The notes beneath the pieces are model-generated. The model did no database searches. It saw nothing but the letters and a program-made list of their open reading frames with translations, and had not been told where the DNA came from. A DNA stretch of 62,974 nucleotides, the filler included, from Kipferlia bialata (taxonomy: Eukaryota): assembly GCA_003568945.1 (NCBI GenBank). It is 7 parts of 7 records of this genome, joined end to end, with 100 filler letters (N's around TTAATTAATTAA, not from the genome) between each part and the next. Parts side by side here need not be neighbours in the genome. Positions count along the whole stretch, not along the records: positions 44,110 to 55,028 come from BDIP01001334.1; 6 more parts are not named here. One strand, 5' to 3'. How positions within the stretch are numbered: position 1 is the first letter of the stretch; every line of letters begins with the position of its first letter. Positions 5,116 to 58,502 of this stretch are shown piece by piece. A program made the position numbers and the translations under genes.

Positions 5116-9422
<4,307 letters not shown>

Positions 9423-39982: not shown

Positions 39983-40310
39983 GTCCTTACCACCCTCCGA
40001 CACGACAACGACAACATGCGTGCACTGCTGGAGGGCTGGATGGCAGAGCAGGTATGGATATGGTATATATATACTATTATATCACACACATATATATATA
40101 TATATATATATTATATTTATTTATATTTAGATAGATATAAATATAGTATACATACACCTGTGTGCACTGCTGGAGGGCTGGATGGCAGAGCAGGTATACT
40201 ATGAATACTAATGATGTATACTCTATTATATATGTATTATACATATTGTGTATAATGTACATGTATATACCTGCGTGCACTGCTGGAGGGCTGGATGGCA
40301 GAGCAGGTAT

Positions 40311-40357
<47 letters not shown>

Positions 40358-43300
40358 CATATGTATATGTAGATTGATATAGATATAGATAGATTGATTG
40401 ATGGAGGGCTGGATGGCAGAGCAGGTATAGAGTGCTCATTAGATATACACTACTATATGTATAAAAATAGATATAGATATATAGATCTGTAGATCTGTAG
40501 ATAGATCGATAGATAGATAGTATACATGTATCTACGTGCACTGCTGGAGGGCTGGATGGCAGAGCAGGTATGGATGTATATGTATATATTAATATATATC
40601 TATATATACCTATATATATCTATATATATAGATAAATATAGATATAGATTGATTGATTGATGGAGGGCTGGATGGCAGAGCAGGTATACTATGAATACTA
40701 ATGAGTTGGACGGTAGAGAGCAGATATGTATATAGTATTACTTCTTACACATATATTGTGTGCATAACCTCTCTCTCTACATATCTATGTACATACTGAG
40801 TATCAGCACCATATGTATATATACATACTCCTGATATGTTATGTTTTGAGTGGTATGATATTTTATGCATACTATATACCATGTCTACCTGTATACTATA
40901 CGTCATTCTTATATATGTGTATATGTATATATAGTATCCTAAATGAATATATCTATAATAATCTCTATAGAGTATATAGTCTCTACTCCATATACCTCCT
41001 CTCTATTTCTCTCTCTCTCACTATCCCTCACTTCAATTCCCTCTCACCACTAGGGTGACGTGAACTCTGCCGTTGCCCAGGAGATCCTGGCCCTGCGGCA
41101 GTGTATGAGCAGTGTTAAGGGAGACCTCCAGTACCTGCAGGACAGCACCAACAGGTTGGGTCACAGTATGATATACTATATATGATATATATGATATACA
41201 TATGCTTCTTATAGTGCACAGTAAAGTAGGAGGGTGGTTGTTGATTATTGATATTGGAAGGCATGTGATAAGGGGAATGACCTGTGTTTGAGTTTGTGTG
41301 TGTGAGGGGGGGGGTATGTCTATATCAGCATTAATTGTTATGGTAGAGACTATAGCTTATATTTAGTCTGTGTCCTCACCCCAGGTGCATAGACGACATC
41401 GACACCCTGCAGAGAGGCATGTCTACCCTCCTTCACGGGTACTCAGCTGAGATGGAGACCCTGCCCCCTGATGTGTGCAAGCTGGTGGCCAGGTGCCTCC
41501 TGCAGGAGCAGTGCCTGAGGAGTGAGTTTGGTGCCCACTTCCGCACTGACTTCTATGTCCCCATCCGCACTCTGGCTGACCTCGAGAGCGACTACCTCCG
41601 GCAGCTGCGTGCCGGGGCAGCTAGACACCCCCTGCTTGTGATGCTGGCTGACATGGGCATGGGCAAGACATGGAGTGCCGCCCACCTCGCCCTCTCCTGC
41701 TGCCAGGAGGACAGCCGGCACAACGTGGTGCCCTTCTTTGTGCTACTGAGGGGGGGACTGGAGAGTGCCATGACAGCATACTTCAGCAAGGCCCACCCCT
41801 CAGAGGTCGCTGAGAGGTGCCGCAGCCTGCACAGGAGTGGCAAGACTGCCCTGCTGGTACTGGATGGCCTAGATGAGATGGGAGACAGGGACACGAGGGA
41901 TGCGGTGGTGTGGATCACACAGTTCCTACAGGTGAGTACCGCGGTCGAACTGATACTAGCTATTTACCTAATCCATTATACAATGAGCAATCATCTTTAC
42001 CCTCTAACACTAGGCTGTGCGTGGTGAGGCGCTCCTCTTTGTGTCGTGCCGTGGCTCTGTGTGGGGGCTCAGCCCTGCGGTGTCAGGAGCCAGGGTGACC
42101 CTTGAGGACTACATGTACAGGACAGGGACCGAAACAGGCCACCTTGACTGCTCCATCGAGCTCACCCACCTCTCCCCCACCGAGCAGAGAGCTGCTCTAG
42201 TCACGTATGGCCTGGGCGATGTGAGCCTCCCCCCCTCTCTCCTTGAGATGTGTCGCAAGCCCTTCCTGCTCAGGCTGGTGGCTGAGTACGTGGAGTCTAC
42301 TGGCGTGGTGCCTGACCCCAGTGACGTCAGGTCCTTCATGCCAGTCTTCTACGACCCCACATACGCATCTAGGGACACTGTCCTATATAGGATGGGCCTC
42401 AACCAGGTAAGACTATACTGTACCCAGTTCTATACACTTCTGGGTTAATATGTCCTCTGACCCCAGCTGAGAGTCAAGCGCTACTTGGTACCCTTCCTGA
42501 CACAGCTGGGGAGTGCTGCTGGGAGTATAGTGGAGACCGCCCTCCCCACTGCCTGGATCCATGATATGCACTGGGCAGGAGTCACATCCTGTGGACTGAT
42601 TGATGTGAGAGAGGGCTTTGCCTGTAACGAGCTAGGCATTGTGCATGTCTACCAGCCCTTTGTGCAACATATGATGGATGTTCATGGGATAGGGGATGGG
42701 AGCACCGATATTGTGAAGGGGACTGCCTACAGTTGGCTGCCTTCACTGACACAGAGCGAGGTTGAGGAGAGGGAGAGGGAGAGGGAGAGGGAGAGGGAGA
42801 GAGAGGAGGCAGCTCTGCTAGAGAGACAGAGAGAGGCAGCTCGTGTCTACGCTAAGAAAGAGGCTCGTCTCCAGTCGGAGAGAGCGAGAGTGGCCCGTCT
42901 TAGTGCGGAAAGGCGGGAGAGAGAGCTCCAGCAGAAGAAAGAGAGAGACAGAGAGCAGGAGAAGAGGGAGAGAGTTGAGAGGGAGCAGCAAGAGAAGAGA
43001 GAGAGAGAGGAGAGGGAGCGTGAGGCGGCACTTCTGACGAGGCAGAGGAGGGCAGAAGCAGAGAGACAGCAGAGAGAGAGGGAAGCAGAGAGGAAGAGGC
43101 AGGCCGCACAGGCCAGTGCAGACAAGGCGAAGAGAGGGGCACACTCACAACTTTCTGTACGTGTGTGTTTCCTTCCTATTCTCGTCACCCCTCCCCACCC
43201 CCCACGTCTTGGTGGAGACTCTCTCTCGCATTTACAGTGTAAATCATCATTGCTCTGTTATATCTATGACAATGTTTTAGTTGTATGCTTACTCAGGTGC

Positions 43301-44109: not shown

Positions 44110-47100
44110 TCTCTCTATTAGGGCCACACCAGCGCAAACCGTGCCCGACCACCCCCCTCCCCCCTCCCCCTACGGTACCACCCCAGTCTCCACATCCCAC
44201 CAGTCCATAGATGAACAGGCGGTGTTGGGTGCCGTCATCAGTGCCGTACACGCCTGCAGCTTCGTGCCCCAGTATCTCTGGGTGGCACACCCGAATATAT
44301 ATATGAATAGGAAGGGGCACGGGAGTGTGTCATTCGATGGGAGGGGCATCGTCAGGCAGACCCTCATGTCGATAGCACTCATCCGGCTGCTAGGTGCTGT
44401 GTACCATGCCCTCCCCCCCCATCACGACATACGGGGTGCCATCAGGTCAGCTCTGGTGTACCTGCACGTGTCTCTGACCTGTGATGTATCACTGTCTCTC
44501 GCCTCTGTCTCCTGTGACACCCACAGTGCACACCGGGCAGCCCAGGAGTCAGGCAGGTCTCTCCCCCGCCCCGTGCTATCCTTGGTGGGGCAGTGTGCCA
44601 GGGCAGTACTGGGGGAGCTGCAGACTCTGCTGGGACGGAACCGCAGTGACACCCTGTCCTATCTGGTGGAGACCTCTCTGATCGTCCTGCCCAGGACCCT
44701 TGACCACCTCCCCAGGGGCCGGGTGTCTGTGCTAGACGTCAGCCAGTGCCTGCGCCACGTATCCCGGTCTCTGCTGTGTATGAGTCTGACGCAGGAGCCA
44801 GGCACCCCTTCGTCTGCGGTGCATCAGGACCTACAGCTGGTGAGGTGGTACATGAAGCAGGTGTGTATGCCGGATGGAGCCACAGCGGTGCAGGGCGACA
44901 CACCCATGGGAAGAGGGTCTGGTACTGGTACTTCGGAGGATGACACGGAGGGGCCCTTCACTGTGGCCTGTAAGACTGTGAGCCACAGCCTAACAGCTGC
45001 TCTCAGCCTCATCCTATCACTCCACCGGCCTTTGCGGCAGCAGTATACAACCGTAGAGAAGTGCAATGAGGTATACACTCGGGGCGAGACTCTCATTTCT
45101 GTCTGTGCGCCTGTTGGGGTGTCTCTGCCGGGTCTGATACTGCCTCTGCTGCACCCCTCCTTCTGCCCCCTCTCCGCCCTGGGTCAGTACTGTGCCTCCT
45201 ACATGGACTTCTCCTATGATGCGTCGATGGTCAGTGCCACAGGGCTGGTGGTGGGACATGTGGAAGAGTGGGAGGGGAGGTGGCAAGCTCATGTGGGCGG
45301 TACAGTGGGCGGGGGCGGGGTTGCTCCCGTGCCGTTTCTGCTCCGGAGTAGTGACCTTGCAACTCAGACTGGGTACACCCCTTCCTCTCTCCTCACGCTC
45401 ATTGCCTCTGTGCTCAAGGCTGACTATGTGGTCAACAAGGCTCTGGAGACCAGCTCAACCCCCCTGGGCGACTGTCTGTGTGTGCTGGGCTCCCCCTCAC
45501 ACAGTATCCCCAGGGTCCACCCCTCTATGCACCTAGAAGTCACTCGGCACACAGGCAGACAGGGGGCACCTGGGGGAGAGAGAGCACACGAAGGGGACAG
45601 CCCTGTCCTCCCCCCCCCTCTCAAGCAGATCAGGTCTATTCTACCCCTCGTGCGTCGCCTGGGCCTGTCTGACACATACAACCTCAGGACAGTTCCCCAT
45701 ACCTCTGGGCTGCCGGGTAAGGTTGTACTAGCAAAGCTCAAGGGGCAGAGGGACAACGACCCACACGCCACTGCCTCCTCGGCCTATGCTTTCAGCCTGT
45801 GGAGCCTGTCACTGGCAGCGGGGTACCTCTTTGTAGCCCAGCAAAGGCAGGAGGAAGAGTCCGGCCAGCGGCCCCGCCCAACCAAGCCTGACATAGAACT
45901 ACCGGCGATGCTGCCCAAGATGATAGTGAATGCCGTCCTGAAAGAGATGGGGAAAGAGGCCCCTGGCGTGTGCGTCAAGTACAGTCAGTCTGTGCTGTGT
46001 GCATGTCTGTCGTGCTGTGGCATGTGGGGCAGTCTGGAGGCGTGTCAGAAGGAGGAAGACAGCCTCGTCTCCTACCTGCCCATCCTCTCAGGCATATTCA
46101 GCCAAGCACACAACGCTGTCCCCCTAGTGGCTGGCCTTAGCATCAAGGTGTGTGGGTCTTCGCCTCCCCCAGCCTCCCTGGTGAGCCTTGCCAGTGCCCT
46201 CCACCTCTGCAGGAACTATCTGGTGTCGGTGTGGCCCCAGGACATGTGTGCCCAGTCTGGCGGCTCTCCTGTTAGGCCGCCACCCCCTGGTGTCTTCTCA
46301 ATAGTGTATGCCACTCTGGTGTGCTTAGGTGCCGACGCACCCTCCTCCCCCTCTTCCCCAATGCCACCAGTAGGCAACCCTCATGGTACCAGAGGTAGTC
46401 TCATCCACCGGTGTCTGGACCTGGTTACTGCCTATGCAAAGAGCATACCGACTCAGGAGGTGGAAGGAGGGACAGAGGCTCCCTTTGTGGGTCCTGTGAG
46501 GGGAAAGGTCAACACCCGTGTGAGGACATGTATGTGTGACATGCTTCTGAGTCTGTGTGACGTGTATGAGGTGGGCATGTCTGTGATGCGTGGGGTGCCG
46601 GCCTGTAATCGGCCTGCATACCGTGAGGATTTCCTCCTCCAGTGCTGGCCTGTACTGTTCTCCCTGCGCCTGTGTATACATAGCATCCTGGACTACAGTC
46701 AGGGACAGGAGGATGAGACATACACCCCCAGGGTCATGGCTAGACTGGCGGGGGTGGCCGCACTCTCTGCCCCTCTGTGGGGGTCCAACAGCTATGACCA
46801 GGCAGTGCAGTCCGCACGGCACCACAGTGCTGGGCTGAGGTCGGGGGCCGACCTTGTGGTGCCAGAGTACAGCACCTGTGAGGGGGTCAGCAGCGTGTGT
46901 TATGCTGCCAGTATGCTCTACTCCAGTCTCTACTCCAGTCTCCGGTCTGTTCCTCTGCAGCTGCATACAGACCTCTGCCTGTGCGGCGCCGTACAGGTGC
47001 TGCTAGGAGTGACCCTGGGTGTACACAGGCAGGGTGAGGGGGTGGGCAGCAGACGGCTCGTGAGGCCCCACCTGGCCAGCCCCCTCCTCTCCTCGCTGGC

Positions 47101-49667
47101 TAGTCTAAGCTTCATACCCACCCTGGGTCCGGAGGCCAGGGCTGAGGAGGTTGTCGGGGTGTTTGTATCTCTAGTCTCTAGGCTAGGCAGGGTGGACGAC
47201 ATCTCCCTCAGAGACGAGGCCCAGGGCACCCTCCTGCACTGCTGTACAGCGATGGAGACGGAGTACACGGGCAGAGAGGCCCAGACCCGGGGTACCAACC
47301 AGGGCTACATCATAGCAGAGCAGAGACAGGTGCTCAGAGCTCTAGAGGCTGTCCTGATATCAGGGTTTCACGCTAAGAAGAGGCGGGGGGGCTACGATAT
47401 GGGGGGGTGCATACTGGGGCCAAGTGACTCTGAGACTGAGGCCGACCGAAGGGCCGCGTCTGCCCTGCTCCATGGGCTGCTGGGTGAGCCTATGCCCCAG
47501 TCGCCCCCCACCCACACCGCATATGGCTCCAGATCGCCTGACATCGATCTCGACTCCTCGTCTAGCGTGTCCTTAGAGGTGTACTCCCTGGGACTCTCTG
47601 CCTGTTCGTGTGTGTGCGCCTCTGTATTGTCTAAGCCCTTTGCATGTGAGGCTGCTGACCTCGTGTCTCTCCTAGCGGCTCCCATCAGGCGGGAGGGCCA
47701 GAGTCTTCTGGCAGAGTGTACTACTGACGCAGGGTCCCTTCTAAGGGGGAGCCTCAGGCCTCGCCCCTCCGAGGGCGACCCCAGTATGGCGGCATCCCCT
47801 AGGGTTATAGAGCCAGACAGAGGTGTCAGAGGCAGAGTGCTCTCACAGACCGTAGCCTCCACCCCCCTTCTAGGCACCCTGGCCCTCCTCTCCCTCGGCC
47901 TAACTAAGACCACCAGTACTGCCACCAGAAAGGTGTGTGAAGCCCAGCTGTATGTGGTGTCCAGGCTGTGTCGCGCTGTGTCTGGGGGTGTTGTGCTGGA
48001 CACCTCTTCTAGACTGGTGTCGAGACAGTCCAACACACTCGTGTCCTCTGGGGGTGCCACCCCTCTAACCTCCACCCCTGCCCTTTCCGTGGCCTGTCTG
48101 GTATATGCCTGCAGGTACCTGGCTGACGTGTCCACCGTATACCGTCTCTCCTCTGGGTACGGCAGGGGTCTGGACTCTGTGGTGCCTGTCCCCCAGTGGC
48201 TATGCACCCAACTGGAGGAGGGCGGCATGGACCAGGCAGACACCCTGCCCGACCTCTCTTGCTTGTCTGACGGCACTGACCTCTTCGACAGGGCCAGCAA
48301 CCAGCGCTGCCAGCCCCTCTCCGACATCAGCCTGCTCAAGCGGTGGTACCACCTCACCGTCACCTCTGTGGGGGAGAGAACGTGGCCCATAGGCACCCAT
48401 GGGAACAGGGGCTTTGTCCAGACAGATATGTCAGGTGGGTCTGGGAGATGCGGTGTCAGTGTTACTGTATTCGGTGCTGTTACGTGTGGTGTTATATATT
48501 GTGTGTTGTGTTCTTCAGCTACTTCAATCATATCTAGTCTCTCTATTATTATTATGCGTTGGTGTAGCCAACCCTGACCGTCAGCGGTAGCCCGTGCCCA
48601 CATATCTGCCGTTTCGTCCTGTCTGTGTGGTCTGTCCACCATGAGACAGGAGGTGTGCGGCAGGGGCCAGGCAGAGCCCGCCAAGGTAGCCGCCAGACTG
48701 TCTCTGGTAGGTGCTGTGTCCGTGCTCTATGCCCTTGTGGAGACACAGCCCCTGCGGAGGGGGTCCCTGTATGGCACTCCTGTCCCTGCCCCTGTGTGTG
48801 CCTCTAGCCAGCTGGAGGAGGTTGGAGATATGGAAGTTAGGGACACGGCCCCCTCTGACACAGCACAGAGGGGTGGGCTCTACGACAGTAGTAGGTTCAC
48901 CCGAGACTCCGTTGTCAAGGGGCGCCGGGACTCCCTTGCCTCAGAGGTGGTTAAGGCAGGGGGGTATGCATCCATGGGTGTGGAGACAGACCCGTCCCCT
49001 ACCCCTCTCATCGTGTTGCCCATGTATGGGGGCCACTCATGTACGCAGGAGTATTATCGGAGTTGTATTCTCTTTGTCTTTGTGCTGTCCTGCCCCCCCC
49101 CCCCCTCTCCCTCTCTCTCCCCCTCTCTGACCCCAGACTCCCTCCCTGCACGGCATATCCTGACCCCCTCCTCAGAGGAGACGCTGGCTGGGATGAGTGT
49201 GCCCCCAGAGACAGGTAGGATGTGTGATTGTACATGTGTTGTATATCAGTATTCACCAATGTGGAAGAATTGAGATTGTATCTACTGGTGAATGAGAGTC
49301 AACGCGATTGCATTTTATGTGGCTATCTCTCCCTTTCTCCCTCTGTCTCTCTCTCATGCCAGCTGAGGAGAGGGCCGCCGATGTGTTGCGCCTCTCTGTG
49401 TCTGTAGCACCTGGTGGGGACAGGCAGCGGGGTGGGTACATGGTGTTGTTCAAGGGGGCAGTGGGCAGGGACTGTATGTTGCTAGCGGCACGGGAGATTG
49501 TTGAGTGTCTGCAGGTGCTACAGCGGTGCGAGCCCGGTTCAGAGCCTAGGATTCGGGGCCTTGTCGTCGATGTACTACAGACGTTCAGTAACGCCCATTC
49601 TAGGTCATGCGACTCTGATCGACAGACAGTGACAAAGCTTCTACACACAATATCCCAGATGAGATAG
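44110..49667 (+). CDS. Very large hypothetical protein (>1400 aa in one exon), possibly helical-repeat
   Basis: Open frame from the contig edge to about 48430, then further GT-AG exons ending TKLLHTISQMR*. Leu-rich helical segments, no recognised motif. Confidence 0.75.
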
Positions 49668-52795: not shown

Positions 52796-53068
52796 ATTGA
52801 ATGCACTGGATAGTCACCTCCCGGTATTCTAACAGATAGGCCAATGAGAGGAGAGAGAGCAGGCTGAACCGTTCTGTGAACGAGTTGGTGGTTCCACACC
52901 CCTTTTCGATTTCAGTTTTTGAAGCGTTTCGCCCTCTTCGAGACGCTTGAGGATGCGAACCTTCCCTTTGCCAGTCACTGCAAGTCCCGCAAGTCCCGCT
53001 AGAGTGTCTAGGTACCGTAGTTCATCCCTATCCTGCGTCGAGACCTGTGTGTGGAGGGCAGTAGAGAT

Positions 53069-53287
53069 ATGGTGCCGAAGGAGCCGAGAGATACAGGGCG
53101 CCGCCCGGTCACTCTGCTCGAGGATGGCGCCTCCAGTACCTCCAGTGCCTCCAGTGTGTCTAGGCCTGGTCTTAAGGATGTAGAGAGAGGGCCTAGGCGC
53201 CGCCTTGTCACTCTGTTTAGCCGCAAGAAGAGGCACAAGTCCCAGTTTGTGGAGTTCTTTGCATACGCAGAGGCCAGGGGTGTTCAG
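53069..53287 (+). CDS. First exon of a hypothetical gene
   Basis: MVPKEPRDTGRR...VEFFAYAEARGVQ|gtac; donor echo at 53373-53400 confirms strand. Confidence 0.6.
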
Positions 53288-53499
53288 GTACTGTGTATGT
53301 GTACATTGATTCACAGAGTATGTTTGTATATACATATATCAGTGTAAGTATATATAGTGTCTCTATATGTATGTATGCAGAGGCCAGGGGTGTTCAGGTA
53401 CTATATATATAGTTACCTATATTCATATATACACATGTGTATGTTTGTATGACATGCTTTGTATATGAAGAGGCCAGTGGTCATTCCTCTCTCTCTCTG

Positions 53500-53533
<34 letters not shown>

Positions 53534-53669
53534 GTGGGGTGTCAAGGTATTATTGAACTACTATATCGTTGTCGCATCGTAGTGTGAGTCTGGAATTGGT
53601 AGTAGCAACTCCAGTGAATGAACTCCTCCCATCCCCCCCCCCCCCCCCCCCCCCCCCCCTTACACCCAG

Positions 53670-54480
53670 GTTCTGACACTCTACCAGTGAGTGGTGCATC
53701 TCTTCTGGTCACAGTGGTCGGGGAGACACACAGCTATGTGGGGACAGCAGTGGAGAGTGCCACGCCGGGTATGTCTATGTATATATATGATACTGCATAT
53801 ACTCCTGTATCTATAGGAACCGATATTTGCATCAGCTATGTGGGGACAGCAGTGGAGAGTGCAACACCAGGTGAGATATGATACTATATGTACTCATACA
53901 TTTATAAGTACCCGAGATATATGCATCAGCTATGTGGGGACAGCAGTGGAGAGTGCAACACCAGGTATGTAAATATATGTATTTGTTATGCAGATGGATA
54001 GATAGCTTAATAGATATATAGTGTATATAGTGCATATATGCATCAGCTATGTGGGGACAGCAGTGGAGAGTGCTACACCTGGTATGTGGGAGATTGTATA
54101 TAATTATACTGCCATAGTCTACTTGACCCTCTCTCTCTCTCTCCCTCCCTCCCTCACCCCCAGGTCTCTATGAGTACACCCTCACCCCAACTGCAGAGGG
54201 ACTCTATGTGGTGACAGTGGCTGTGTTTGGGGTGTCATCAGGTATCTCTAGCACTAAGTATACATATAGATATAGAGAGAAAGATAGATTTGTTGGTCTC
54301 ATCTTCATACATATCTCTGTACCTACTACCTCTCTCTCTCCCTCTCTCTTCACACCCATAATTATAGGCGCCTCTATTTCCGCCACTCTCTCCCTGGATG
54401 TCTCTTCCTTGTCCATCACACATGGGTCTCAGACATACCTGTTGTCAACAGAGGAAGATACGTGCTTGGAAGGAATACAG
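53670..54480 (+). CDS. Filamin/Ig-like domain exons
   Basis: Spliced SLLVTVVGETHSYVGTAVESATPGLYEYTLTPTAEGLYVVTVAVFG resembles the filamin repeat G-x-Y-x-x-x-x-TP-x-x-x-G-x-Y-x-V-x-V. Confidence 0.65.
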
Positions 54481-54735
54481 GTATGTACACACCACATGTA
54501 GTTATTACTTACCTATTTATACATATGGTAATTGTACATGGATCCCAGACATACCTGTTGTCAACTGAGGAGGATACATGCCTAGAGGGGATACAGGTAT
54601 ATACACCCTATACAAATATATGTACATATAGATATAGCTATTGATAGATGTATATATATATATGTATATATACATGGGTCACAGACATACCTGCTGTCAA
54701 CAGAGGAGGATACGTGCTTAGAGGGGATACAGGTA
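53732..54735 (+). repeat. Two exon-echo arrays (4 copies of SYVGTAVESATP|gt; 3 copies of HGSQTYLLSTEEDTCLEGIQ|gt)
   Basis: Direct repeats near 53732, 53833, 53927, 54043 and at 54421, 54537, 54673. Confidence 0.92.
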
Positions 54736-54974
54736 CTATATCGTTCTCTCTCCCTGATCCTCTATTATCACCCCAGTCTGAGTATGGCCGGCTCTCTCTC
54801 TCTCTCTCCCGTGTATGACATAGTGTTTTATAGTATTCCCTAATGAATATTCCATATATATTCTTGTCCTCTTACTCCAGTCTGAGTATGACATTGGGAC
54901 TCTCTCTCTCTCTCCCTAGCAGATTCTCTCTGTCTCACCCCAGTCTGAGTATGGCCTTGGCTCCTCCACCACTG

Positions 54975-55028
<54 letters not shown>

Positions 55029-56167: not shown

Positions 56168-58502
56168 ACCTGGGGCGTGTGCCTGACGGGGCTGGGGCCG
56201 GGCATGGGCTGGCCCTGGACCTAGGGTGAGTGGTATAGATAAAAATACATACATTCATCAATAAATACAAATACTGCCTAACTAATCATAGATGTAACAA
56301 AGGAACAGAGAGTATACTTACATATATACAATACATATATGTATCTACATATATGTATATACTACATTATATGTATATACATATATGTATATACTACAAT
56401 ACACATACCATCCTGGGTCCTGCCTGGGGGAGTGGGGCAGGCTTGACAGGGGCACGGTCAGTGTGGGCGGGCTTGGTCTGATATATTAGAGAGAGAGAGG
56501 TTGAAAAGTATTGGAGAGAGAAGTGGGAGGGGAATGGAGATTCATATATATAGAGAGAGAGACATACCTTCCTCTCTGGCTTCTTCTGCTCGGTGGTCTG
56601 GGCAGGGGTCTGGGGGGTGAGAGATATAGAGACACAACCAAAAACATATGTACTACTATGATTATTGTTATTAGAATGAAACAATATGTACCTGATTCAC
56701 TGGCTTGACCGACACTGGGAAGGGTGGCACTATAGACATGTGTATATAAACAGTAGCTTATACTATGTTATATATACATACTATTACATTTACACACCTG
56801 GTTGACTGGCTTGACACTGACTGGGAAGGGTGGCACCACAGAGAAGGGCTCAAGGCCACAGAACCTGTTGCCAAGTCTAGTCATCAGAAGGAGAGAGAGA
56901 GAGGATTAATGTAGATTTTGAAATTATTTTAATTGTTCCACACATGATGTGTGTGGGTTTCTGGATACAGAAGGTATACAGTCATTCACATATACTGACC
57001 AAGAGGCGTCCACAATACTGAATCCATATCAATATACATTGACACAAATATCATATACCCTTGATTAGTATATATAGTGGTATATCATATACACATAACA
57101 CCATATATACCTGACGAAGTATGGGTCGGACTCTGCCCTGACAGGGATGTCTATATACACAATGCACTATAGGTATATACACATACACATATATATAAGT
57201 ATACACTGTATAGTAGGTATACATATATATATAGTATATACCTGACGAAGTATGGGTCGGACTCTGCCCTGACGGGGAGGGCGAAGGGGAGGACACCCTT
57301 GGCATACCTGGAGAGTCAGTGTATACATACATACATATACTGTGTGATAGAGAGAGATATCGGGAAGGAGAGGACACCCTTGGCATACCTGGGGTGAGGG
57401 GGGGATAAATACACACATACTTACATATATAAATGAATATGTATATAAACTCACCATGTCCTCATCCGCTGGTTGCTGAAGGGGCCCTGGATCTGCTGGG
57501 AGTTGTCGAGGTAGTACCACTGGGGGAGGTACTGCTGGGGGGCTGGAATAAGGGGCTAGAGAGAGAGAGAGAGAGAGAGAGAGATGTAGTACCACTGGGG
57601 GAGGTACTGCTGGGGGGCTGGAATAAGGGGCTAGAGGGATAGAGAGAGAGAGACATGCATAGACTCTGTATGTACCTGGCCTGTACTGGGGTGCCTGCAT
57701 CTGCATGCCGGGTGGCATGGCAGGGCCCTGGAGGGCGGGGCCTCCTGTAATAAGATGCATCCATATATATATAGAGAGAGAGATAGAGAAAGAGACACAG
57801 GACACAACGTACCCTTGACTGGCCTCTGGGGGTATCCTCTGTACTGCTGCTGCTGCTGCTGGGGTAAGGAAGTACGAATAGTAATACATATATAATAAAT
57901 ACACATATGTATACATACACTCGTATCCTCTGTACTGCTGCTGCTGCTGCTGGGGTGAGAGGGGAAGAGACAGAGAGAAATAAGTGAGCATGAAGCTACT
58001 GGAGCAGGATACATAAATATTCGTGGAAACATACAGTAATGATAATACACATGAGAGAGAGACTCGTACCCTCTGGTACTGCATGGCCATGGCGGGGGAG
58101 GACATGTATACATAGATAAATAGTATATGCGTATACTATACATCATTGTATATATATACATATATATAGTCGTACCCTCTGGTACTGCATGGCCATGGCG
58201 GGGGAGGACTGGGTGAGTCTCTCGCCAGTGGGGACGGGGAGGGGGTGGGAGCTAGGGTAAGACGGGGGTATATGGCGAGAGAGAGGGAGAGAGGAAGGAA
58301 GAGAGACAGAGAGAGGGGACGGGGAGGGGGTGAGAGCTAGAGTGAGTTTTGAAATATAGAGAGAGTCAGTCTCTCTCCTTGGTGTAAAGAGGGGGTAGGT
58401 GGAGAGAGTCAGTCCATACCTCTGCTGAGCGTTAGCTGCCATGGGGGCGGGGTTGGCACTGGGGGTAAGACTCATATTAAGACTCATATTAAGACACCAT
58501 GT

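Follow-up and report, generated by a model that had tools for sequence, protein, structure and literature searches.

The intronic copies described here lie in KIPB_005616, a plus-strand gene on one of seven Kipferlia bialata scaffolds that are joined by N-flanked linkers into the window we analysed (62,974 nt, hereafter the 63-kb window), from which all our echo counts are drawn. Phase-consistent models, obtained with a codon and splice-site model and then curated by hand, gave 11 genes or gene parts with 86 exons and 75 introns. Besides KIPB_005616, whose protein has a weak match to invasin domain 3 (Ig-like) below the Pfam cut-off, these include a PUS7/TruD pseudouridine synthase (14821-11058, minus strand; Pfam TruD match), the first exon of an Fe/Mn superoxide dismutase (416-348, minus; Pfam match), a proline-rich GYF-domain protein (60529-55137, minus; a phase-consistent model of 22 exons with a Pfam GYF match in the chain), a gene that we take to be esterase-like (5259-9422, plus) and another that is presumably P4-ATPase (flippase)-like (18422-15177, minus), a label given from its motifs; its short pieces gave no Pfam hit. 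Reading frames are anchored independently by an RNA contig, by the NCBI models P0002 and P0003 and by the Pfam matches to TruD (in two exons), Fe/Mn SOD and GYF; the other frames, which are the majority, are those of our own models, curated after the differences described below had been seen, and RNA backs only KIPB_005616. ARAGORN found no tRNA in the window. An open frame of 1488 codons at 44111-48574 (plus strand) has no intron, which is unusual for so intron-dense a genome, and acceptors across the whole window carry a branch-point-like motif fused to the 3' splice site, e.g. CTGACCCCAG and CTCACCCCAG, an arrangement that recalls diplomonad introns. The published genome is an Illumina/SPAdes draft with 124,912 GU-AG introns, for which diploidy was inferred from k-mers (PMC5874029).

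The exon at 54368-54480 is covered by an RNA contig over 54366-54477 with no other letters and is matched by the protein. Its last 60 nt (54421-54480) recur at 54537-54596 and 54673-54732, inside the 463-nt intron that follows (54481-54943), and each of the three copies ends at GT. The coordinates, difference counts and silence that an earlier sequence-only reading had reported for these copies all stood. Compared with the exon end, copy 2 has 9 differences in 60 nt and copy 3 has 6, and the two echoes differ between themselves at 6 of 60; every difference is silent, two first-position leucine changes (TTG/CTG and TTG/CTA) included, and the 20-residue translation of all three is identical. Of the single-base changes possible in copy 1, 40 of 180 (22%) are silent, or 22 of 60 (37%) if transitions are considered, and the probability that 11 of 11 distinct changes would be silent is 6e-8, or 2e-5 with transitions only. 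The same probability is 1e-5 (1e-3 for transitions) if the true exon supplies half of the history under constraint. The longest exact run common to the copies is 20 nt, and copies 2 and 3 have the same far junction. A search with the exon peptide returned one protein, KIPB_005616, among 21 candidates, and no second protein with this exon.

Such copies, which we call echoes, repeat either the end of the preceding exon with its donor site or the start of the next exon with its acceptor site. Upstream in the same gene, the exon at 53670-53768 (RNA contig on 53669-53768, no other letters) is the parent of three donor-side echoes of 38 nt each, found by the echo search at 53833-53870, 53927-53964 and 54044-54081, each with three silent and no replacement differences and all with one common far junction. 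The exon between the two arrays (54164-54241, on the RNA contig) gave no echo in the same search. The intron at 54481-54943 also holds two acceptor-side echoes, which qualify the impression that its copies differ only silently: a short one at 54777-54789 behind a full acceptor motif, and another at 54881-54897 with two replacement differences from the true exon start. Both lie outside the window-wide count given below. The true next exon is at 54944-54975, with RNA support to 54968 and a predicted 3' end. Contrary to the proposal that the 60-nt copies had no evident in-phase acceptor, copy 2 has an acceptor-like site before 54549 that could give a 48-nt mini-exon, although its score of 4.9 is below the median of real acceptors (7.4) and the RNA contig does not use it.

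Evidence on DNA continuity and splicing comes from contigs of two short-read runs (X1 and X2) of one sample, possibly the assembly's own. Run X2 is RNA by guess, and its contig behaves as spliced mRNA, with GT..AG joints. Contigs rather than raw reads were compared, so rare variants and isoforms drop out, and read support covers 52900-55020; elsewhere continuity and splicing rest on the assembly and our own models. A 924-nt X1 contig lies colinearly and with no other letters on 54044-54609 and 54680-54967, skipping 70 letters at a repeat on both sides, and its depth is 386.6 compared with 387.2 on the upstream flank. Since the three copies are traversed by a single DNA contig whose depth is that of single-copy sequence, stacked haplotypes are unlikely, and the outcome that had been named as fatal to the sequence-only reading, a single exon copy per molecule, did not occur, as far as short reads can show. 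At 85% likeness no contig of a second haplotype or paralogue lies on the three copies, where depth comes from this contig only, and none of the DNA contig joints listed at the locus skips 116 or 252 nt. A 1550-nt X2 contig joins 53669-53768, 54164-54239, 54366-54477 and 54941-54968 with no other letters, and both of its listed joints have GT..AG ends. It removes 54481-54943 (cut +3) from the first donor to the last of three acceptor-like sites, with its acceptor at 54943, and skips every echo; no RNA contig depth falls in the bin of copy 2. The NCBI model of KIPB_005616, by comparison, splices to the acceptor-side echo at 54881-54897 and ends early.

Two irregularities lie upstream. Between 53480 and 53668 there may be a misjoin or a missing exon at (CT)n and poly-C tracts: the exon at 53069-53287 ends in phase 0, yet 53670 begins in phase 1, the flanking RNA contigs differ in depth (116 vs 31), and the downstream RNA contig begins with 350 nt that have no listed placement on the upstream exon. 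Run X1 has no contig over 53539-53751 and is uninformative there. A DNA contig at 53843-53946, between two identical echoes, has a depth of 209.7, about half that of its flank; one homologue may lack this unit, which is a weak indication from a short, AT-rich contig.

The 60-nt copies are one case of a common structure. We searched the introns flanking each exon without gaps, trimming unanchored ends to five matches and keeping echoes of at least 14 nt; gapped and shorter echoes and the exon at 2691-2505, whose phase is ambiguous, are omitted from the count. This gave 91 echoes in 43 of the 75 modelled introns, with a median of 27 nt and a longest of 61. Echo-bearing introns are longer than the others (median 296 vs 115 nt). 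More than half of the examined introns thus hold copies of neighbouring exon ends that differ mostly silently and are skipped in the main mRNA where this was checked. Echoes and exons differ by 98 silent changes on 601 sites and 35 replacement changes on 2026 sites (78 and 35 distinct changes), a pN/pS of 0.106, or 0.139 under a fourfold transition bias. These values replace an earlier untrimmed count (78 echoes, 64 silent, 53 replacement), because its complexity filter had lost long echoes, the 60-nt copies included, and untrimmed far ends had added chance mismatches. The neutral expectation of 1 is rejected (p 5e-25 to 2e-19), and so is 0.5, the value predicted with constraint on the true exon alone (p 7e-12 to 5e-8). 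A ratio near 1, the second outcome that would have told against the sequence-only reading, was therefore not seen in this window, where pN/pS is 0.11-0.14. Comparisons between echoes gave 35 silent and 18 replacement differences (pN/pS 0.14).

Third codon positions hold 93 of the 135 differences, whereas shifted frames give 11 of 120 and 18 of 116. The differences have no direction in codon preference (34 vs 31) or GC (39 vs 37), as expected of two working versions. Identity with the exon was found in 37 of the 91 echoes, and 74 have no replacement difference. By gene, silent and replacement changes number 24 and 0 in KIPB_005616, 26 and 8 in the esterase-like gene, 12 and 2 in the GYF gene and 10 and 3 in the flippase-like gene. 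The bias is uneven, with 8 and 12 in PUS7 (a ratio of about 0.5, so that the echoes of this gene look neutral) and 9 and 7 in the gene at 4143-889. The ratio is 0.139 with KIPB_005616 left out and 0.038 without the eight most replacement-rich echoes. A donor-side echo in the GYF gene, on the next scaffold (56692-56730, minus strand), has six silent and no replacement differences, among them an AGT/TCG serine switch. This switch, the low pN/pS in echo-exon and echo-echo comparisons and splice sites of real strength support the proposal that the variation arose in functional exons.

The anatomy of the echoes is regular. Donor-side anchoring was found in 46, acceptor-side anchoring in 35 and none in ten; no echo was anchored at both sides. 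Every donor-anchored echo (46 of 46) is downstream of its exon, and every acceptor-anchored echo (35 of 35) is upstream of it. Identity to the parent is about 0.8-1.0 per position on the exon side, a value inflated by the way echoes are found, and on the donor side falls to 0.3-0.55 from five bases into the intron; the flanks are nearer to the parent's intron than unrelated introns are in 23 of 81 echoes. GT is retained in 42 of 46 and AG in 33 of 35, and loss of either is not clearly linked to replacement changes (4 of 17 vs 12 of 74, p=0.49). Echo acceptors score 7.36 compared with 7.39 for real ones (some echo sites were among the predictions used to train the weight matrix), yet they match their own parent at only 65% of positions. 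Orthologous junctions from distant alleles look like this, with strong splice sites unlike the parent's.

Far junctions coincide within 3 nt in 25 of 42 within-array pairs (null 22%; the pairs are not independent), and spacers are detectably homologous in 21 of 40 pairs, often at 70-80% identity. Arrays with common far junctions and drifted but homologous spacers must be old, while their exon parts are clean. In KIPB_005616 the spacers are 68-77% identical with many gaps, those of the three-echo array included, against no replacement change in five echoes; an echo as old as its spacers would carry several, so its exon part must have undergone renewal or selection since. Within an array, decay does not increase with distance from the exon (pN 0.018 for the nearest echoes, 0.006 for the farthest), nor is there any correlation between flank similarity and silent divergence (rho 0.00). 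A 1-kb intron at 40052-41053 (plus strand) holds five echoes of one exon end, each of which matches the exon without a difference for 23-35 nt, among spacers that are 72-88% identical. The sequence-only reading had supposed that variation from functional exons was captured, perhaps by unequal exchange or gene conversion at microsatellite flanks. Microsatellite-like far junctions are enriched, though only modestly (39 of 81 vs 26% of intron positions), and the common far junctions and diverged spacers favour repeated renewal of an old array over a one-off capture.

Where they could be checked, echoes do exist in the genome; they repeat in tandem the end or start of an exon along with its splice site and lie inside an intron of the main mRNA. 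The explanation that we consider slightly more probable than all others together is that an old duplication founds the array and that out-of-register recombination between homologues keeps renewing it from divergent working alleles. The structure would go back to a short stretch around one splice junction that was duplicated in tandem, in many cases with a microsatellite at the join, and the founded unit would be composed of the junction, the exon end, GT and the intron start, or the mirror image at acceptors. Only one-sided duplications would be harmless, because the first donor and the last acceptor remain in use, as seen in two KIPB_005616 introns. Intron DNA probably diverges fast, so that the sole usable homology between alleles would be the 20-60 nt of exon; strand exchange would then often pair an echo with the true exon of the homologue, a misalignment that short exons between unalignable introns would ease. 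Gene conversion or unequal crossover could expand the array and overwrite the echo with an allele already filtered by selection. In that case the replacement differences would have built up only in the brief interval following the latest renewal (about 1/57 of a mutational time unit), and the silent ones would show how far alleles have diverged (about 0.15 or more). An echo that no longer takes part in the exchange would decay as ordinary dead DNA.

A model with renewal rate c, of which a fraction f draws on a homologue, and silent diversity theta, in which pN = mu/c and pS = 2mu/c + f x theta, is fitted by c of about 57 mu and f x theta of about 0.15. The silent counts are described better by exponential, coalescent-like depths with a mean of 0.20 than by a single depth (lnL -122.0 vs -132.4), and copy 2, with 9 of about 14 silent sites changed, falls in the 1% tail of the fitted model. 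By our own derivation, conversion or collapse within one chromosome leaves pN/pS at 0.5, because it removes silent and replacement differences equally fast. Since 0.5 is rejected, echoes are either translated or copied from other working versions; that these versions are alleles is what we infer. Published work describes metamonads as lacking NHEJ and the examined fornicates as having lost Rad51A and having two Dmc1 paralogues (PMC8516963), which would make homologous recombination the likely main route of break repair. Microhomology-mediated template switching (FoSTeS/MMBIR), as described in PMC4888836, is a candidate for the founding of the arrays. More tentatively, and in our view with the odds against it, the exchange could be genome-wide and two-way, with introns as stores of junction alleles that have passed selection and return to the exons by exchange, so that exon ends and splice sites would turn over as cassettes and one inbred genome would hold the record of a hyperdiverse recombining population, in a lineage that lacks NHEJ and Rad51A.

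The donor is the weak point of this explanation. Renewal from alleles requires a silent diversity of about 0.15 or more, whereas the strain looks homozygous at KIPB_005616, and a look for a second isolate yielded none. In two metagenome scans no conspecific locus was found among 188 stretches in one, and two matches among 134 in the other were both remote (28-31% identity) and were left out of the analysis. KIPB_005610 (29384-32950, minus strand) has a twin, KIPB_003089, on another scaffold of 16,882 nt, and all 830 aligned residues of the two are identical, the sole difference being a predicted mini-exon of six residues. This twin could be a second haplotype, a recent duplicate or assembly redundancy. 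If the two were alleles as far apart as echoes are, 10-33 differences would be expected where none was observed; provided that the twin is an allele at all, the strain therefore lacks high heterozygosity at that locus. Selfing or long culture would hide the diversity, at the price of an added assumption.

A homozygous-looking strain without donors is what would remain if the donors had been diverged homoeologues or paralogues from past hybridisation or polyploidy, with misregistered repair between subgenomes followed by a loss of heterozygosity that erased them. The molecular step would be the same as in renewal from alleles, confined to a finite episode instead of drawing on a standing allele pool, and the deep silent divergence (up to 9 of 14 sites, and the AGT/TCG switch) would be explained as well. 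We nevertheless find this unlikely, as three versions of a single exon end occur, no two of them alike (9, 6 and 6 differences), and depths spread continuously from zero instead of forming one or two classes, so that several rounds of hybridisation would be needed. It is less likely still that selection acts on the echoes directly, through present-day translation, with minority transcripts or another life stage putting the echo in place of the true exon end by non-canonical splicing or by frequent deletion of DNA between the repeats. Replacement-free echoes in old arrays and full-strength splice signals fit such a use, which if minor could escape contigs that drop rare variants, and the half-depth DNA contig at 53843-53946 might be read in the same way. 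The RNA contig, however, reproduces the true exon sequence with no other letters in all three exons before the intron as well as in the one after it, and skips the echoes, and no listed DNA joint removes 116 or 252 nt. A canonical in-frame swap of exon ends is available to none of 42 donor echoes and to 3 of 33 acceptor echoes, and in-frame mini-exons are possible for 3 of 42 and 11 of 33. The suggestion that the copies might be expressed by unusual splicing accordingly gained no support from the RNA contig or from the donor echoes.

If the echoes were ordinary dead duplicates that arose in tandem within one chromosome or from its sister chromatid and were homogenised in cis, constraint on the exon together with ascertainment would have to produce the excess of silent changes. 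This account is likely right for part of the echoes, since 37 of 91 equal the exon, the PUS7 ratio is near 0.5 and several echoes are rich in replacements. For the whole set it is quite improbable, and we reject it unless many of our own-model frames are wrong, because it predicts 0.5 between echo and exon and about 1 between echoes. An assembly artefact, with divergent haplotypes or strains stacked in tandem, is the least credible of the explanations. The assembly is a short-read draft with breaks at simple repeats, X1 may be its source run, and there is the possible misjoin near 53480-53668; but a separately built contig crosses copies 1 and 2 unbroken and continues colinearly through copy 3 at flank depth, one contig where stacking would leave separate contigs at half depth. 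Stacking would also not yield partial exons with common novel junctions, and the copies share at most 20 identical bases. Three further ideas were rejected by argument: ribosome bypass; RNA-templated conversion, which would not preserve splice signals; and context-dependent mutation, which would increase rather than reduce replacement changes.

Mutually exclusive tandem exon duplicates, as in Dscam and U2AF1, are whole exons with both splice sites that are expressed and have low dN/dS. Echoes resemble them as exon-derived intronic copies with low dN/dS; in contrast, they are partial, have one splice site and are absent from the RNA contig, which uses the parent only, although contigs drop rare isoforms. 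The silent donor cassettes of trypanosome VSG and the chicken immunoglobulin pseudogenes are converted into an expressed locus. They too are unexpressed partial copies, and they keep a coding character by recombination with an expressed gene, as echoes may do, but they supply amino-acid diversity to one family, whereas echoes supply almost none (74 of 91 lack any replacement difference) and lie about 100 nt from their parents in unrelated housekeeping genes. Interlocus gene conversion is a textbook process, and together with FoSTeS/MMBIR it offers plausible founding and renewing steps for echoes; these processes give duplication and homogenisation rather than silent-only differences, for which a diverged working template would be needed.

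Junction-spanning internal duplication is known from single cases (PMC4974935, PMC3488318), among them the internal tandem duplication across a splice junction in potato RdRp (PMC4974935, where Gao and Lynch 2009 is cited on such duplications). As in the potato gene, the duplicate comprises an intron end and the adjacent exon start and carries the parental splice signals, and echoes likewise are adjacent direct copies of an exon edge together with its splice site and intron flank (46 of 46 donor-anchored, 35 of 35 acceptor-anchored, homologous spacers in 21 of 40 pairs). The potato case, as described there, is a single one that created a new intron; echoes lie unused inside existing introns, 43 of 75, form arrays, and have diverged at silent sites and in their spacers with the amino-acid sequence retained. 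The neutral decay expected of an unused tandem duplicate, with a pN/pS of 0.5-1, is not what we observed overall (0.11-0.14) and fits only some genes, e.g. PUS7. Intron gain of the Rogers type, in which a GT of the first copy and an AG of the second are spliced so that the protein is restored, is also not seen: none of 42 donor echoes and only 3 of 33 acceptor echoes offer such a route, and the RNA joint spans the whole array. In openly accessible main texts, to which our literature search was confined, we found neither for Kipferlia nor for any other organism an account of intronic exon ends that are unexpressed yet carry a coding signature, and the main text of the K. bialata genome paper, as distinct from its supplements, makes no mention of duplications, tandem copies or heterozygosity (PMC5874029). 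The description of echoes is well supported, and the proposed mechanism is somewhat more likely than not.

Echoes mislead annotation, as the echo acceptor in the NCBI model of KIPB_005616 illustrates. The reduced spliceosome (87 of 174 proteins; PMC6679479) appears to pick the exon-flanking sites among equally strong decoys, which suggests a behaviour like exon definition. A protein-level signature in unexpressed DNA would normally be taken as proof of hidden function, but here it may be the trace of recombination with working alleles. Were the proportion seen here, 43 introns in 75, to hold for all 124,912 introns given for the genome (PMC5874029), echoes would number in the tens of thousands. 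If renewal from divergent alleles is true, introns would be an archive of the population's past alleles, and allelic diversity and recombination between homologues could be estimated from one genome of a free-living Giardia relative. The finding would then also bear on sexual recombination in fornicates and on how breaks are repaired with Dmc1-type recombinases and no NHEJ.
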